From Candidatus Aminicenantes bacterium (GTDB taxonomy: Bacteria; Acidobacteriota; Aminicenantia; Aminicenantales; JAFGBC01), in contig OY969696.1 in NCBI GenBank assembly GCA_963702005.1, forward strand, positions 3,968,001 to 4,032,000: 64,000 nucleotides of DNA, written 5' to 3'. The number at the start of each line of letters is the position of its first letter. The first letter of the stretch is position 1. Shown here one piece after another: positions 3,611 to 10,063 of the stretch. The notes below the pieces were generated by a model. The model saw nothing but the letters and a program-made list of their open reading frames with translations. It made no database searches and was not told the DNA's origin. A program made the translations under genes and the position numbers.

Positions 3611-5710
3611 TCACCGTATAACGATCTCGACCATGCCGAGCTTTTCCAGGAACTTTATGTAATTTTCGACCTCGACGACCGGGATCGGTTCGTACTCCGC
3701 CGAGACGGCGTCCCGGATCTCGAGGATCGACCGCTTCCCGTCGATGAAATTGCGGGCCTCGAACTCGCCCTCGCCAAGGTTGTACTTGGGAAGGTCCTTC
3801 CGCCCCCGGATCTTGTCCCCGAGCCGCCAGAAATCGAGGATCGTGCCCATCTTGGCCGTCCGGCGCGGCACGAGCCCCGCCAGCCGCGTTTCGTCTTTGG
3901 TCGGAGAGGGCAGCACGGCCGGCTTAACCTTGAGGGCGGCGCAGCGCCTCGCAAAAACGCCCTCGAGGTCCTGGAGAAACGGCCCCTCGATTTCAGCGAA
4001 GGCTTCGACCTTCTTCTGGAGGGCCGCTTCGGCGGAGGCGTTTCCCTTGGCGAAGAAGCGGATGGATGCCAGAGCGTCCTTCTCCCTGGCCACGGACTGA
4101 CGGACGACGTTCAAGGCTTCCTTATGAGCGGCGGCAACGTCCTTGGCGCCGGCCGCGGCGATCATCCGCTCGGCCCTGAGCCTCTCCTTCCCGATTCGTG
4201 CCGAAGCCCGCGCCTGAACCTCGCCCGCGATCCGGTCGACATCCTCGGGGCCGGCGTTGGCCAGGAACAGGGCGGCCGCCGCTCCCAAAATCCCGACCCG
4301 CTTGAGCTGGGTCGAGTCGGACTTGTCGGGGGTATCGCCGCTGGTGTGATACCACATGTCGGGCCAGACGATGAACATGACCGCGGGGACGCGAACGCCG
4401 CCGTCGATAAACACGACGTGATCGCTCCCGCCCGTGAAGCGGCTCACGGAGCAGTAGAACGGATCCCGCGTCCCGGTCGGGGAGGCGATCAGATACGGCA
4501 CCCCCCAGGTCTCGGTCGAGTTCCTCTGAGTCAAGCCCATCCACTCGACGAAGGACTCGACGACGTCGCCCAGGTAGCTGGGGATCGAATAAGGCGACCG
4601 TTCGAGATAGAACGTGCCGTTGTTCTTAACGATGGCCTCGCCGACCATGTCCTCGTTGATGTTGGCGAAAAAGCGGCGGGCGACATCGGGATACTTCTTG
4701 ATGTAGGCGGCCGTCCCGTCGATCTCGGGCACCATCAGGAAGCGGACCGAACGGCGCAGGGGCGGGATAAGGCCTTTTTCGGTCAGCGTCTTGAGGGCCC
4801 GGGCCGTCTCGAGGATGGCGACGCAGCCGCTGACGTCGTCGTTGGCGCCCTGCTTGGCGAAGCCCTCAAAGAGGTGGGCCGTGAAGACGAGCTCCTCGTC
4901 GGGACGGTCCTTCCCCTTGAGGACGGCCTCGACCATTTCTTCCTTGTAGGGGACCATCCGGGTTTTGACCGAGGCCTTGAGCACGATCTTGACGCCGCGC
5001 TCGAGCTGGTCGCGGAGCTCCTGGCCGGTTCGCTGGGAGACCATGAATCCGAAGGTCTTGGCGGCCTTTTCGGAATTATCGATATGGCCCCAGCCGACCT
5101 CGTCCTGGTCGAATTCGGGATGGGACGAGGAAAAGCCGACCAGGCCGACCGCCCCGTATTTCTCGACGGCCAGCCTCTGGGCCCGTCCGGGCGAGCCGTT
5201 GACGAGGGCGATTTTTCCCTTGAGCTTTTTCCCCTGGTAGCCCTCGGCCTGCCAGCCGGGGCCGACGTAGACGAGCTCGGCCGTGACCTCGGCCGAGGAG
5301 CTGCCCGGGCAGATGGAGGCAGCGATCTCCTTGAGGTCCGCGATTTTCTCCTTGGAGGGCTCGATCATCACAAGCTCGGCCGACTCGGCGTCCCAGGTCT
5401 CCTTGTCCTCGGTCGGAAGGTCGACGATGGCCGCATCCTTGATCCCGTATTCCTTGAGCCTGTCAATGAGGAAGCTGGTCTCGAAGTAGCCCTTGAAGTA
5501 TTCATCGGGCTTCCGGTTGCGGTTGACCCCGCTCAGATAGATCTCGTTCTGGAGGGCCAGGTCTCCCGACACCTCGAGGATGATCGAATCCAGGACGTCG
5601 AGGGAGAGGAGGGCGGGCGGGACATCGCTCCTCTGCTGGGCCGGGACGGGAACCGCGAACGCGGCGATGAGAAGAAGAATGAGGCCGGGGCCGAAGACCT
5701 TCCGATTCAT
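3611..5710 (-). CDS. M28-family aminopeptidase with PA-like insert (DUF4910-like), secreted
   Basis: Signal peptide; TAH, GANDDVSG, PEIDG, GSDH and YHTSGD motifs. Confidence 0.85.
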   Translation of the reverse strand: MNRKVFGPGLILLLIAAFAVPVPAQQRSDVPPALLSLDVLDSIILEVSGDLALQNEIYLSGVNRNRKPDEYFKGYFETSFLIDRLKEYGIKDAAIVDLPTEDKETWDAESAELVMIEPSKEKIADLKEIAASICPGSSSAEVTAELVYVGPGWQAEGYQGKKLKGKIALVNGSPGRAQRLAVEKYGAVGLVGFSSSHPEFDQDEVGWGHIDNSEKAAKTFGFMVSQRTGQELRDQLERGVKIVLKASVKTRMVPYKEEMVEAVLKGKDRPDEELVFTAHLFEGFAKQGANDDVSGCVAILETARALKTLTEKGLIPPLRRSVRFLMVPEIDGTAAYIKKYPDVARRFFANINEDMVGEAIVKNNGTFYLERSPYSIPSYLGDVVESFVEWMGLTQRNSTETWGVPYLIASPTGTRDPFYCSVSRFTGGSDHVVFIDGGVRVPAVMFIVWPDMWYHTSGDTPDKSDSTQLKRVGILGAAAALFLANAGPEDVDRIAGEVQARASARIGKERLRAERMIAAAGAKDVAAAHKEALNVVRQSVAREKDALASIRFFAKGNASAEAALQKKVEAFAEIEGPFLQDLEGVFARRCAALKVKPAVLPSPTKDETRLAGLVPRRTAKMGTILDFWRLGDKIRGRKDLPKYNLGEGEFEARNFIDGKRSILEIRDAVSAEYEPIPVVEVENYIKFLEKLGMVEIVIR

Positions 5711-5779
5711 GATTGTCTCCTTTGTCTAATGATCCGCTTCATTCAATGTGCCGAGTCGTGAAGATTCTTGGCGATTTTC

Positions 5780-7822
5780 TCACAGTTGCTTTCTGATAAC
5801 GCCTCCCCCATCCAATCCGAGATAAAGGATTTTTTGGGCTTCATTATAGGCTAGGCTCATGCATTCCCTCAAGGAAATATCGGCATAACTAATGCTGTCC
5901 CATGTCTTCCCCCGGTCCTTGCTTACCTGAACCTCATTCCCTCCGACGATGATCTCCCCATGCGAGCTCTTGGAGATAAACATGGCATGGGCAGGCTGCG
6001 TTAGAAGCTTTTTCCAGCCGGCCCCGCCGTTCCCGCTCTTATAGAATCCGCCGTAGCCGCAGCAGAGATAAATGTTGTTTGTATTCAGAGGATCGATTTT
6101 CATATCATCGATGTCGTCGAAGTCACCGGCCTTTGTGTTTCCCCAGCTGGATCCGCCGTCGATGCTTTTGACGAGTTTGCAGCGATTCGAGGCGTAATCC
6201 AAATAGCCCATGTAAATAACCTTTTCGCGGACGGGATCTACGGCAATGGCCCGGGCATAGGAATCGGCCGAATTCGCCCGGACCGTCGTCCAGGTCGCCC
6301 CGCCGTCCTTGGAAAAAAATAGAGCCAAAGCGTTATATGAGCCTTGAGGCCCGCTGGCCGGGACCATCCCCGCGCAAAAAATATGTTCGGGATTCCGGGC
6401 AGACCGGTAAAGATCCTGCAAAGTCCCGGATTTGAGCTGCTTGAAAGTCCTTCCTCCATCTACAGACCTGTAGATGCCGTCGCCCGCTCAGCCCCCGGAC
6501 AGGACAATGACATCCTTGGCGTTCGTGGGATGGACCGCGATCTTGAAGTATCCGCCGCAGTTGCTGAGCTCGGTCAGGCGCTCCCAAGATTTTCCGCCGT
6601 TCGGCGTCTTAAAAAAACCAAGTTGGCGGGCTTGGGCATAGAGAATATCGGGGGCGGAGGGAGCCGCCGCAACCGCGGGGATGACGGACTCTCGGATTCC
6701 GGAATGAGCGGCCCGCCATAAGAGCCCCCCGTTAGTGCTCCGAAAAACGCCTCCGAGCGATCCGAAAAAGACCGTTTGTCCAGGATTCGGTCCTTTATCG
6801 ATGACGAGCATTTTCAAGCATTCCCCGTAAACGCCGGAGGACCGGACCCAAGCGACGCCGCCGTCCGAGCTTTTTGAAACGGAATTGTCGAAGTCCGCTC
6901 CGGCATAAAGAATATCGGGATTCGAGCCGTCGACGGCAAGGTCGCCGGCATCGAAGCTGGTCGCGGTTGTCTGCCAAGTCAATCCGCCGTCCTGGCTTCT
7001 CTCGACGCCGAGGCCGGTTGCCACCCAAACCCGATTCGAGTCGCCGGGATGAACGACAATGGAGTACGCAGAATAACGATCATCCCAGGGCAAAATACGC
7101 CAATCTTCTCCTCCGTTTGTGGATTTGAAGATCCCATACTTCGCCGTATGCGGCCCGATGCCGTAATAGCCGTCAATATATAGAACGTTAGGGCTGGAGA
7201 GGCTCATGGCGAATCCCATGGTATCGCCATAGTAGGATCCCTTGCTGACGAGATGGGTCTTCCAGGTTTTTCCGCCATCGACGGATTTAAAAAAAGCGAT
7301 GCCCTCCCGCCAGGGATTCGAGCGGTAATCATAATTTCCTGAAGCATAAATAATATTCGAATTCGAGGGATGAACGAAGACCTTGCCCAAGCGTCCGCTC
7401 CTGCCGGCTCCAAGAGAATAACGCTGCCAACAGGGTTGCCCGCGTTCATGCGCGTCCGCCTCTTCGGCGCCGGTCAGCGATATATAAAAGCCCATCTCGC
7501 CCAACGCATAGGCGATTTTGGGGTTTTTCGGATTCAGCGCAAAATCATAAATCGTATCCGGGATCGAGGAGACCTTGGACCAGGTCCCCCCTCCATCGAG
7601 AGTTTTATAGACCGTTACCGAATATTCTCCGACAACGGCATAGACGACCTTCGGCTTGGCGGGATGGTAGGCCAAAGAATGGACTCGCCCCCCCTCCGGT
7701 CCGGCGCCGACCCAAGGACTCGAGGAGGATGACCTCGATTGCAGGGAAGCCGCCGTGATCGCAAATCCCAAGACTATCAGGACAACCCCCTTCTTGGGGA
7801 TTGGCTTGACTTCCATGGTCAT
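5780..7822 (-). CDS. Secreted BNR/Asp-box repeat beta-propeller protein with in-frame UGA (candidate Sec445)
   Basis: ORFs 6488-7822 and 5780-6421 share one frame; read-through gives LSGG*AGDGIYRSVDGGRTF; repeated SxDGGxTW motifs on both sides. Confidence 0.8.
6457..6490 (-). promoter_or_regulatory. Putative bacterial SECIS element
   Basis: UGA + 11 nt + CAUCUACAGGUCUGUAGAUG perfect hairpin; its apex CAGGUCUG is the same as in the E. coli fdhF SECIS. Confidence 0.72.
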
Positions 7823-7975
7823 TCACCTCAACTGAACATGCTTGACGGCAAGATGACCTTATCATGACTCAACCTTAGTATCAATCCCCGACTCATGGAT
7901 CCCATTAGGCTAAAAAATTACGATAGGCGGACGGGGCGAATTTTGGTATAATCTCCCTGGCCAAAGGAGGCTCGG

Positions 7976-8557
7976 ATGGTAGCGGTTTCAACCCTGAAAA
8001 TCATCGTCCTGGTCCTTCTCGCCCTGTCCCTGTTCAGCCTGGTCCGGATCTTGATCCATAAGGAAAAAGAGTCCATAATCCGGGCCCTTATCATCTGCGC
8101 CGCCTTAGGCGCGATCATGTTCGGGATCTCAACTATCAAAGCCGAGAAGGTTTCCGTATCCCTCGGACAGCTCAAGCGCCTCATCTTCCCGGCTAAAACC
8201 GAGGAGTGGGAATACATCGTGGATAAGGGGAGTTTCCAGGGAAGGCCGCAGACCCGCTACATATTCCCCGAGCCGGGGCCGCAGCTCAATCTCACCATGG
8301 ATCCCCAGGGCGGCACCTTCAGCATCACCGACGTCAGCGTGGTCAACACCGTCCTCGAATACCTCGGCCTTCCACCCGTCGAGGAGGGCGTCCCGGAGCT
8401 GTCCACGATCACGGGGTCCTCGCTCAACATCAACACTTACCGCTGGGACGACTATCCCCAGGGAATCCTCATCCTCGAGCGAGGCCTGTGCCGGAAGCTC
8501 GACACCCTCAACACCTACCCCTGCATAGCCAGCATCACGATCCGGGCGCGCGGCTGA
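7976..8557 (+). CDS. Hypothetical membrane protein (two N-terminal TM helices)
   Basis: AAGGAGG RBS; two hydrophobic segments. Confidence 0.7.
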   Translation: MVAVSTLKIIVLVLLALSLFSLVRILIHKEKESIIRALIICAALGAIMFGISTIKAEKVSVSLGQLKRLIFPAKTEEWEYIVDKGSFQGRPQTRYIFPEPGPQLNLTMDPQGGTFSITDVSVVNTVLEYLGLPPVEEGVPELSTITGSSLNINTYRWDDYPQGILILERGLCRKLDTLNTYPCIASITIRARG

Positions 8558-8602: not shown

Positions 8603-10063
8603 TTAACGGTACCGCCGGGCGAGTTCCGCCGCGGACGTTCCGGCGGCGATGAGCTCGGCCGCTCGGGCCGTGAATACCCACTCCTCGAAGAGCTTGTCGA
8701 GGTTGATTTCAGACCTTTTTTTTATGAAGTCGACGAATTGCCGGGCCGTAGCGCCCGTGTCGAAATAACCGCGATAGAAATCTCCGATCGTTTCCAGGAA
8801 TGCTTCTTCCCCCAGCGTCCGGTACAGAAGATAGAAGAAGACCTGACCCATGCGGTAGGAAAGATCCGTCAATTGTTTGACCCCGTAATCGATCATCGGG
8901 GTCTCTTTCCAGCCGGGATGCTCGCGAAATGTTTCGGCCATCCGGACGAGCGATTCGCCGACCGCTTTCTCGACAGCCCCATTGTTGTCCTCCAGCTTTT
9001 CCTGAACGAAGTGCTGGAGAAACATGGCCAGCCCCTCGCTCTCGAAACGGGGAGGAAGGGGATCCTTGGCTTCCACGTTCCAGAGGTGGGAAAGTTCATG
9101 ATAGAACGAGTAACGGCCGGAGGGGTTCTTGAACGCGCCGGCCTCCTGGATGATAGCGGCGACATCGGCTTGGGAGCCGAAGCCGTCCGGAATCTCGATG
9201 ACGGTCAACCCCCGAAAAACCTTGAGCGGTCCGAACCAACGGGAGTAGAGTTCCATCGTCCTCGTCAGGCTCGCGAGGAGCTCTCCCGCCCCCTTGACAT
9301 CCTCGGGAAAAGCGAATATCCGGAGTCGTCCCCCCTCCCCTTCAAGGATGGTGTATTTCGAAACGGCCAGGTCAATGCGCCAGGACGGGACTTTGTCTCG
9401 GTAGACCCAAGTCGTCCGGCCGTCTTTGTCCTCCTTCGAGATCAAATCTCCGCCGTTGGCGACGACGAGCGAGGAGGGAACCGTAAGCGAAACCCGATAT
9501 CCGAAATCATCCAGGCCCTGGGCCCGGTTCGTCAGCCAGGAGGGGACCCCGATCTGCGGAAAAGCGTAGCTGTCCGAGCGGATCAAGGTCAGCTCCCGGC
9601 TGACGCGGTCCTTAACGTATCGCATCGCTTCGGCGTAGCCCAGAAGGAGCCCGCCATACCGAATCCGGAGCGTGGCCTGTTTCCCCGGTCCGAGGAGCGG
9701 ATCGATTCTGACCCGAATGTGGTTGACCTGCAATTCCCTCCAGTCCTCGAAGATCTTGACGTTCTGGGTAAACTCGAGTGGGGTCCCCTTTTCGTCCGTC
9801 ACCGAGGAAACCTCCATGAGGCGGTAGAGATTCAGGGGAATGACCGAGATGGGCTGATCGCCGCCGTTCTTCACGGTCAATGAGCAATCGCCGGCGATGG
9901 CGCCCGATTCGAAGTCAATGTCGATCTTGAGGTCGTAGTAAAGCGGCTTGGGAAGGACCGCGATGTCTTCGGTTGGAGAGAAGCCCAAAGCCGGCGCCGG
10001 TCGCGGACATGCCGCTATAAGGAGGCCGGACAAACATGCGAGGAGAGACAGCCGTTTTTGCAT
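8603..10063 (-). CDS. M1-family (gluzincin) aminopeptidase, secreted or lipoprotein
   Basis: HELSH followed by SEGLA; N-terminal signal with IAAC. Confidence 0.85.
   Translation of the reverse strand: MQKRLSLLACLSGLLIAACPRPAPALGFSPTEDIAVLPKPLYYDLKIDIDFESGAIAGDCSLTVKNGGDQPISVIPLNLYRLMEVSSVTDEKGTPLEFTQNVKIFEDWRELQVNHIRVRIDPLLGPGKQATLRIRYGGLLLGYAEAMRYVKDRVSRELTLIRSDSYAFPQIGVPSWLTNRAQGLDDFGYRVSLTVPSSLVVANGGDLISKEDKDGRTTWVYRDKVPSWRIDLAVSKYTILEGEGGRLRIFAFPEDVKGAGELLASLTRTMELYSRWFGPLKVFRGLTVIEIPDGFGSQADVAAIIQEAGAFKNPSGRYSFYHELSHLWNVEAKDPLPPRFESEGLAMFLQHFVQEKLEDNNGAVEKAVGESLVRMAETFREHPGWKETPMIDYGVKQLTDLSYRMGQVFFYLLYRTLGEEAFLETIGDFYRGYFDTGATARQFVDFIKKRSEINLDKLFEEWVFTARAAELIAAGTSAAELARRYR

Follow-up and report, generated by a model that had tools for sequence, protein, structure and literature searches.

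A candidate selenoprotein family with an Asp-box double beta-propeller fold in Candidatus Aminicenantes

The window analysed here, 64,000 nucleotides long, spans positions 3,968,001-4,032,000 of the single 4.31-Mb contig of a Candidatus Aminicenantes genome (G000; 60% GC). On its minus strand lies a gene for an Asp-box (BNR) double beta-propeller protein that is interrupted by one in-frame TGA, and the question raised by the locus is whether this UGA codon is read as selenocysteine (Sec) and, if so, what Sec would do in a propeller. A reading made from the letters of the window only (hereafter, the sequence-only reading) had proposed a new exported selenoprotein, with a hairpin similar to the selenocysteine insertion sequence (SECIS) of Escherichia coli fdhF. 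We consider it very probable that the in-frame UGA is read as Sec by SelB-dependent insertion, a judgement that a frameshift in selB lowers slightly for this strain. We base it on the conserved UGA, on the distance and the loop of the hairpin, on a freeze of rare codons, on covariation, on co-location with the sel genes and on a single, confidently predicted fold. Taken as a whole, the best explanation, and a likely one, is an exported double-propeller selenoprotein with an fdhF-type SECIS, belonging to a family with 14 Sec members in this genome.

The UGA codon, its hairpin and the selenocysteine genes

Two minus-strand open reading frames (ORFs), 7822..6488 (444 aa) and 6421..5780, are in one frame, and the TGA at 6490-6488 is the sole stop between them; both this layout and the local sequence quoted in the sequence-only reading are exact. 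Translating the TGA as U gives the 680-aa protein proposed there, with U445 and C422, and the local read-through peptide is ...NCGGYFKIAVHPTNAKDVIVLSGG-U-AGDGIYRSVDGGRTF. The window TGA is not an assembly error, the artefact that reading had itself considered, because an independent metagenome contig bridges the site unchanged. Indeed, record 1 of run X1 (wetland; 99% identical, with 9 differences over 819 nt) spans the TGA and the hairpin, and no difference is listed at either. The contigs of runs X2 and X3 span parts of the window gene only, and none of the runs listed for the gene is an RNA run.

With the read-through protein as query, a six-frame search of the genome returned 53 matches, whose frames were then extended. 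Fourteen genes have exactly one in-frame TGA, at codons 387-481 (one truncated piece apart). All 14 TGAs fall in one alignment column, within the motif G-U-G.DD-(I/V)YRSVDGG, with both flanks open at every site and with 31-39% identity to the window protein. The sel operon is surrounded by seven of these Sec members, at 756-783 kb. All non-Sec paralogues have their full length, and their Sec column is occupied by Ser (2), Cys (1; 2125121), Tyr, Thr or an insertion. A de novo scan of the genome returned 104 other in-frame-TGA candidates, most of which look like gene junctions, and no stop was found inside the 3 Molybdopterin-domain matches, the 9 AhpC-TSA matches or selD of this genome.

Three family members look split between frames: 1976686-1978582 (non-Sec), 756159-758097 and 3455041-3456883 (both Sec). 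These are either pseudogenes or products of indel errors in the assembly. In the first, Trp (WGADPFYRSKDGG) fills the Sec column, and the apparent U of piece 1977848 was rejected as a family Sec, as it is off the family column, where Trp is found.

Other genomes were searched with the pattern GGCTGA-N(11-17)-hairpin. In the GTDB species genomes, 10 loci matched and eight of them are in frame in homologues: four contigs of the Aminicenantes metagenome-assembled genome (MAG) G001, two other Aminicenantes MAGs, one "uncultured bacterium" and one "uncultured Eubacteriales" bin, with a local GC of 47-59%. The two remaining loci are chance matches, full of stops. Metagenome contigs gave 76 matches in 72 loci. 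In 69 of the matches the frame stays open for at least 40-45 codons to either side, in the same propeller context (59 distinct contexts); the other 7 lack this. The TGA is thus kept at the same column in 14 paralogues, 8 reference-genome loci and 69 metagenome matches, as expected of a recoded codon in the sequence-only reading. Three database proteins (P0003, P0005 and P0006; 68-74% identity) end at exactly ...VLSGG, as a cut made by a gene caller would give. SelA is present in 20 of 41 relatives, including all the genomes with true TGA forms (G000, G001 and G040); a match with two TGAs in G016 proved to be a frame artefact, without motif or hairpin. A phylum-wide protein search, with 2 candidates scored in each of 401 genomes, found at least 3 genomes at E <= 1e-40, a figure that tells little on distribution.

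Two further homologues are worth recording. The NCBI-derived protein P0013 (659 aa, full length) reads ...LAGG-W-TCDAVIYRSVDGG, with Trp at the Sec column and YRSVDGG/IYRSVDGG kept, a pattern as expected, on the sequence, from a recent TGA-to-TGG change. A Sec-type member with the same hairpin in a divergent context, PGPAG-U-SEPPPIYRSVDNAKNW, occurs at locus L044 (the "uncultured Eubacteriales" bin, 48% GC) and at locus L082 (metagenome); the other-phylum label of L044 could be due to lateral transfer or to a binning or labelling error.

The perfect hairpin that had been reported 11 nt past the UGA was located as described, and its bases double as codons for I450-Y-R-S-V-D-G456. All 14 Sec paralogues carry RTCTWCA-GKTC-YGWRGAY past a spacer of 11 or 14 nt. 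We compared the hairpins in an alignment of 22 rows (A2), 14 from this genome and 8 from other genomes, in which 7 rows have the 14-nt spacer. In this alignment, 98.3% of the cells are paired; sliding the partner columns lowers the share to 14.8-52.3%. At pair 19-36, 17 rows have GC and 5 have AU, which couples position one of the Ile/Val codon to the silent position three of the Asp codon. At pair 23-32, 21 rows have AU and the remaining row has UA, with FRSED in place of YRSVD. The covariation score was 0.126 against a shuffled mean of 0.059, a value reached by none of 500 shuffles, and the share of paired cells likewise beat all 500. No conserved lower stem was found below the hairpin in the same comparison.

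The 69 metagenome matches behave in the same way. The gap before the R of the pattern is 12 nt in 45 of them and 15 nt in 24, which correspond to spacers of 11 and 14 nt. Stem pair 2, left free by the pattern, is GC in 46, AT in 20, GT in 2 and AC in 1 (68/69 complementary), and stem pair 5 is AT in 64 and TA in 5 (69/69 complementary), with no instance of AA or TT, which the pattern allowed. The expectation of a conserved downstream hairpin is therefore borne out, with covariation, in both paralogues and metagenomes.

Within the 4.3-Mb genome, the 16-nt core of the hairpin has 10 copies, and all 10 are placed 15 or 18 nt past an in-frame TGA in paralogues; with a looser hairpin pattern, 14 out of 14 are in the same context. 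The codons are also constrained. YRSV after the TGA is written TAC AGG TCT, followed by GTA or GTG, in 11/11 YRSVD cases of this genome. The genome-wide shares within their codon families are 8% for AGG, 6.9% for TCT and 9.9% for GTA, which gives TAC-AGG-TCT-GTA an expected joint frequency of 3e-4. Elsewhere in these genes, over 100 Asp-box pentapeptides, YRSVN of non-Sec paralogues among them, are written with common codons of varied choice. Judging from these sequence comparisons, the hairpin is selected as RNA.

A related observation comes from runs X1 and X2. Positions 6453-6481 of the window (~29 bases) are the only stretch matched by several unrelated contigs of these runs, which are unlike the window beyond it. 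By their sequence, these contigs are the hairpins of other paralogues, and the stretch is the only one conserved at the DNA level across the family.

The likeness to E. coli fdhF that the sequence-only reading had pointed out was confirmed on NC_000913.3, together with the two differences named there. In fdhF, codon 140 is TGA, followed by 11 nt and then by GGTTGCAGGTCTGCACC. Both systems have a UGA, an 11-nt spacer and a short stem-loop inside the coding region, and the eight apex bases CAGGUCUG (DNA CAGGTCTG), GGUC loop included, are identical. Like E. coli, the Aminicenantes genome has selA, selC and selD, and a selB that is frameshifted in this assembly.

These four genes adjoin each other at 765.7-770.1 kb. 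SelA is encoded at 765,691-766,785 (E 5e-143) and selD, without internal stop, at 767,020-767,940 (E 5.5e-109); selB ends at 769,992 and is followed by tRNA-SeC(TCA) at 770,011-770,106, the sole tRNA with a UCA anticodon among the 52 found. The machinery looked for on the basis of the sequence-only reading is then present and clustered, with the reservation that selB is frameshifted in this assembly. Elsewhere in the genome, locus L003 (G000:C1:461983-463848, minus strand) encodes the SelB winged-helix domains 2 and 3, without a GTPase domain from the likely start (MMSNRMD...); by its sequence, the product looks like a stand-alone protein similar to the SECIS-binding part of SelB.

Protein fold, feature coordinates and neighbouring genes

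The identification of the protein as an Asp-box propeller is supported by Pfam, AlphaFold2 (AF2) and Foldseek alike. Pfam gave Sortilin-Vps10 (PF15902) with 98.3 bits over two stretches (cut-off 33), PSII_BNR (PF14870) with 45.7 and BNR with 38.5; the NCBIfam model NF045728 ("F510_1955 family glycosylhydrolase") scored 166.7 bits in four stretches, below its 175-bit cut-off. The AF2 model, computed from a 73-row alignment, has a mean pLDDT of 91.6 and a pTM of 0.90, with pLDDT 83-98 over residues 431-460. The read-through product is thus predicted to be one confidently folded double propeller. At the N-terminus, a basic n-region, a hydrophobic core and AAS can be recognized by eye (pLDDT 46-50 for residues 1-30), and a signal peptide, hence export, is probable for the window protein and for most paralogues.

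The best 20 matches of Foldseek in the PDB are all GH74 xyloglucanases (E 2e-29, TM ~0.6, identity 15-17%), and a profile search reaches GH74 at E 1e-55. The protein shares with these enzymes (2cn2, 5fkt, 6p2n and 4lgn) two seven-bladed Asp-box propellers. In the profile alignment, ARADIGG falls in the loop of blade 1 that joins strands 2 and 3, and GDLGG of 4lgn in blade 8. We take the Asp of these motifs to be the GH74 catalytic residues, a role supported by the change of this Asp to Ala in 2cn3 in comparison with 2cn2. The loop that carries Sec joins strands 2 and 3 and matches in type the loops with the Asp of ARADIGG (2cn2) and GDLGG (4lgn); it differs in being in blade 9, one blade past the blade-8 motif. 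Moreover, the window protein has G/E and R at the motif Asp positions of blades 1 and 8, and in 24 paralogue rows the matching loops are variable and mostly without Asp. By its catalytic residues, then, the family is not a GH74 hydrolase. We know of no GH74 enzyme that is a selenoprotein.

Sortilin/Vps10 and Ycf48-type BNR propellers are the other known relatives by Pfam, with matches above the cut-offs (PF15902 and PF14870), and the JGI name for homologues is "photosystem II stability/assembly factor-like". They differ in being single propellers, of ten or seven blades, with other roles; judged from the sequences, the match reflects the Asp-box repeat and not orthology.

In the AF2 model, Sec445 is in the loop of blade 9 between strands 438-443 and 449-453. 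This loop appears to be an extension specific to the subfamily, because the wider homologues have a shorter one: in the 72 rows of alignment A1, the Sec column is a gap in 51, and the rest have G, S, A, T, W, Y and so on. The positions of the features are collected in Table 1.

Table 1. Features of the window gene, with positions in the window
Feature	Position	Strand	Basis or remark
Whole candidate selenoprotein gene, Asp-box/BNR double beta-propeller	5780..7822	-	680 codons + terminal TGA stop (5782-5780); ORFs, translation, Pfam, AF2, Foldseek
Probable signal peptide, ~residues 1-27 (MTMEVKPIPKKGVVLIVLGFAITAAS/LQ)	7742..7822	-	By eye
Cys422 codon, candidate resolving Cys, 23 residues N-terminal of Sec	6557..6559	-	Just before inner strand 424-430, same blade
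UGA codon 445, very probably read as selenocysteine	6488..6490	-	One alignment column in all Sec-type homologues; unchanged in independent contig
UGA-hairpin spacer, 11 nt	6477..6487	-	Sequence variable between paralogues; 14 nt in some
SECIS-like hairpin CATCTACAGGTCTGTAGATG, 20 nt	6457..6476	-	8-bp stem (6476-6469 with 6464-6457), GGUC loop 6468-6465
Asp-box of blade 9, S453-V-D-G-G-R-T-F460	6443..6466	-	Overlaps 3' half of hairpin; G457 nearly invariant

Next to the gene, the window has an M28-family peptidase at 3611-5710 (minus strand; Pfam E 1.6e-16) and two ORFs without Pfam match, 7976-8557 (plus strand) and 8603-10063 (minus strand). The latter, of 486 aa, has a HELSH motif and may be a metallopeptidase.

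Possible roles of the selenocysteine and alternative explanations

Several results weigh against the insertion of Sec at this site. Conservation of Cys at the Sec column, which the sequence-only reading had named as support alongside that of TGA, is all but absent: Cys is found in none of the 68 full-length rows of A1 and in just one of the seven non-Sec paralogues (2125121). Such Cys homologues are usual among selenoproteins, without being part of their strict definition. Taken alone, the window hairpin is unremarkable (-13.5 kcal/mol for 51 nt, z = -1.56, equalled by 13 of 200 shuffles), and Rfam, searched over positions 5700-7900 with E up to 10, returned no SECIS family and only a chance ribozyme match. 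In alignment A2, one of the five whole-structure measures, the number of further pair types, was matched by 398 of 500 shuffles, and the number of pairs with a change on both sides by 19 of 500. Compared with the E. coli fdhF SECIS, the GGUC loop is at nt 23-26 instead of nt 22-25 (U of UGA = 1), in members with the 14-nt spacer it is 4 nt further out, and the stem is a perfect 8 bp, where that of E. coli has an unpaired bulged U. The bulged U and the G/U of the loop are important for E. coli SelB. Lastly, selB has one extra base in the GAAGAAGAAG run at about codon 30 (G000:C1:768100-768260, locus L143), which places the P-loop (GTAGHIDHGKS) out of frame with the rest of the gene. This base, not present in the relatives G001, G040 and G003, is either an assembly error or a real lesion. 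As for the hairpin, its signal comes from the comparison across homologues and not from the fold of a single sequence.

If Sec is inserted, the mechanism would be as follows. The SelB pathway would read UGA 445 via the fdhF-type SECIS located 11 nt downstream, inside the Asp-box (I/V)YRSVDG. In the loop extension of blade 9, Sec would form a redox-active selenenylsulfide with a nearby Cys, at -23 or at +24/25, and exported TlpA-like thioredoxins of the sel island might recycle it. We prefer, tentatively and with somewhat less than even confidence, such a Sec-Cys redox role, with a selenenylsulfide centre on the entrance face of the C-terminal propeller, because of the near-universal presence of a nearby Cys and of the adjacent exported redoxins.

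The evidence on the partner Cys comes from 73 distinct Sec contexts. Of these, 53 have a Cys at -20 to -27, mostly at -23 (the position of Cys422), and 18 contexts without upstream Cys, such as those of a clade with Ser at -23, have one at +24 or +25; one context has both. The -23 column holds Cys in 9 of the 14 Sec paralogues versus none of the seven non-Sec paralogues aligned there, and some distant non-Sec homologues do have Cys in this column. From the model, residue 422 would be opposite 445/446 if the ladder 424-430/438-443 continues, a registry that we infer; from the topology, +24/25 would be where the next blade's inner strand begins, with all three positions on the same face. The pairing with Cys422 put forward in the sequence-only reading thus suits the majority of the contexts and is not universal, given the others that have a Cys at +24/25 instead.

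The evidence on the redoxins comes from the locus L063 (G000:C1:774988-779674), between two Sec-propeller genes beside the sel operon. It encodes three exported thioredoxin-fold (AhpC/TSA-like) proteins with WCVPC/WCGPC, two of them in fusions, one with DUF6029 and the other with a CarboxypepD_reg domain. It also encodes a polyferredoxin-like membrane protein (Fer4_5) that has several Cys clusters, and an OmpW-like outer-membrane barrel. A gene similar to those of flavin amine oxidases separates tRNA-Sec from the next family gene.

The redox role also meets difficulties. A nearby Cys is lacking in one full context (Sec paralogue 1221094) and in one cut context; redoxin genes adjoin the family at one locus only; and around 13 paralogue regions no recurrent neighbours were found beyond shadow ORFs and two 2-member groups.

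The known selenoproteins of extracytoplasmic or thiol-oxidoreductase type (Prx-like, DsbA-like and thioredoxin-like proteins, and the multihaem MccSep, bioRxiv 10.1101/2025.11.18.688581) resemble the family, which has a single Sec, probably near a Cys, in an exported protein, and genes for thioredoxin-fold partners nearby. They differ in three respects: their fold is unrelated; the family has no UxxC/CxxU, with the partner Cys 23-25 residues off; and its Cys-form homologues are almost absent.

A rather unlikely, still the main, alternative is that Sec is inserted and serves as a ligand of a metal or chalcogen (S, Se, As, Hg), or as a catalytic nucleophile acting on a polymer in a GH74-like cleft. 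Fold and profile are indeed closest to GH74 xyloglucanases, and the Sec loop matches in type that of ARADIGG; the lack of conservation of the Asp columns in blades 1 and 8 speaks against the same idea. Close non-Sec relatives with Ser (3451963) or Cys (2125121) at the Sec column would form a nucleophile series, but Gly, Trp, Thr and Tyr occur there too. The many exported paralogues are typical of substrate-degrading or substrate-binding proteins. The Cys that is almost always nearby points instead to a redox centre made of two residues, but would also be compatible with a metal site of two ligands.

It is improbable that the system is decaying in this strain, with a truly frameshifted selB and 14 TGA genes that are truncated relics of a recently functional family. 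In favour of decay are the extra nucleotide that selB has in comparison with three relatives and the apparent splitting, between frames, of at least two Sec members (756159/757348 and 3455041/3455354) and of one non-Sec member (1976686/1977848). Indel errors would account just as well for several frameshifts in an assembly of one contig. Furthermore, all 14 TGA sites and hairpins are intact with open flanks, the site is preserved in a related strain sampled by an independent metagenome, and no frame change interrupts selB of the sister species G001 over model positions 1-210.

The sequence-only reading had also suggested that the UGA might be a regulated terminator by which selenium switches between a 444-aa and a 680-aa product, both functional. 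No result supports this suggestion, which we regard as very improbable. Failed insertion of Sec terminates translation in any selenoprotein gene, and nothing here is specific to two functional forms; the UGA is inside blade 9, so the short form would be without the last five to six C-terminal blades, closing strand included, and the non-Sec paralogues, as said, are all full length.

The absence of any recoding (a sequencing error, two genes or a pseudogene, or a UGA read as another residue) has a negligible chance, given the TGA at one column in 14 + 8 + 69 instances with open frames on both sides, the lack of a separate start signal (the nearest start codon is a TTG 23 codons downstream), the use of TGA as a normal stop by the window gene and other paralogues, and the identity of the sole UCA-anticodon tRNA as tRNA-Sec.

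Evolution and significance of the family

To place the Sec and non-Sec forms relative to each other, we used a quick maximum-likelihood tree of 37 rows, which includes 18 of the 120 listed database matches and omits 5 paralogue pieces shorter than 600 aa. On this tree, the Sec label requires 7 changes, of which well-supported branches impose at least 3. Two Sec genes form the sister group of the Cys paralogue 2125121 (support 100), and a different Sec pair that of the Ser paralogue 3451963 (support 92). A single origin of Sec followed by repeated losses (to Cys, Ser, Trp and others) appears more likely on the sequences than repeated gains, because the hairpin is the same in all Sec lineages.

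Put together, the results allow a joint reading that we offer only as a tentative proposal. An exported selenoenzyme family, expanded in some Aminicenantes and with 14 genes in one genome, placed around the sel operon, would carry a Sec-Cys centre on a GH74-like scaffold and act outside the cytoplasm as a redox catalyst on some bulky or insoluble substrate. The family's SECIS would be fused with an Asp-box, with the RNA dictating YRSVD, and its ancestor would have been a non-Cys form, so that the family would have been missed by Sec/Cys pipelines.

This family of Candidatus Aminicenantes is large and apparently undescribed. In the literature searched, no paper connects selenocysteine to BNR/Asp-box propellers or to Aminicenantes. 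The words propeller, BNR and Aminicenantes are absent from the main texts of PMC13188914, PMC12013277, PMC13326102, PMC9312934 and bioRxiv 10.1101/2022.07.06.499078 (two reviews, deep-Sep, BSepDB, and Haft and Gwadz); their supplementary lists, such as the 111 families of BSepDB, are outside this scope and could list the family. In the same main texts, the selenoproteins listed by the reviews are mostly cytoplasmic, of thioredoxin fold or molybdoenzymes. If the reading is true, the family would by contrast be new in fold (an Asp-box double propeller), in location (exported) and in copy number (14 per genome). It would also mark a blind spot of the methods based on Sec/Cys pairs, because almost no Cys forms exist.

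If true, the locus would also be a very clean natural case of dual coding, in which an RNA hairpin fixes both the amino acids and the rare codons of a structural motif. The apex identical to that of the E. coli fdhF SECIS makes the read-through directly testable in E. coli. Finally, the family would give a handle on the physiology of an uncultured phylum of sediments and wetlands.

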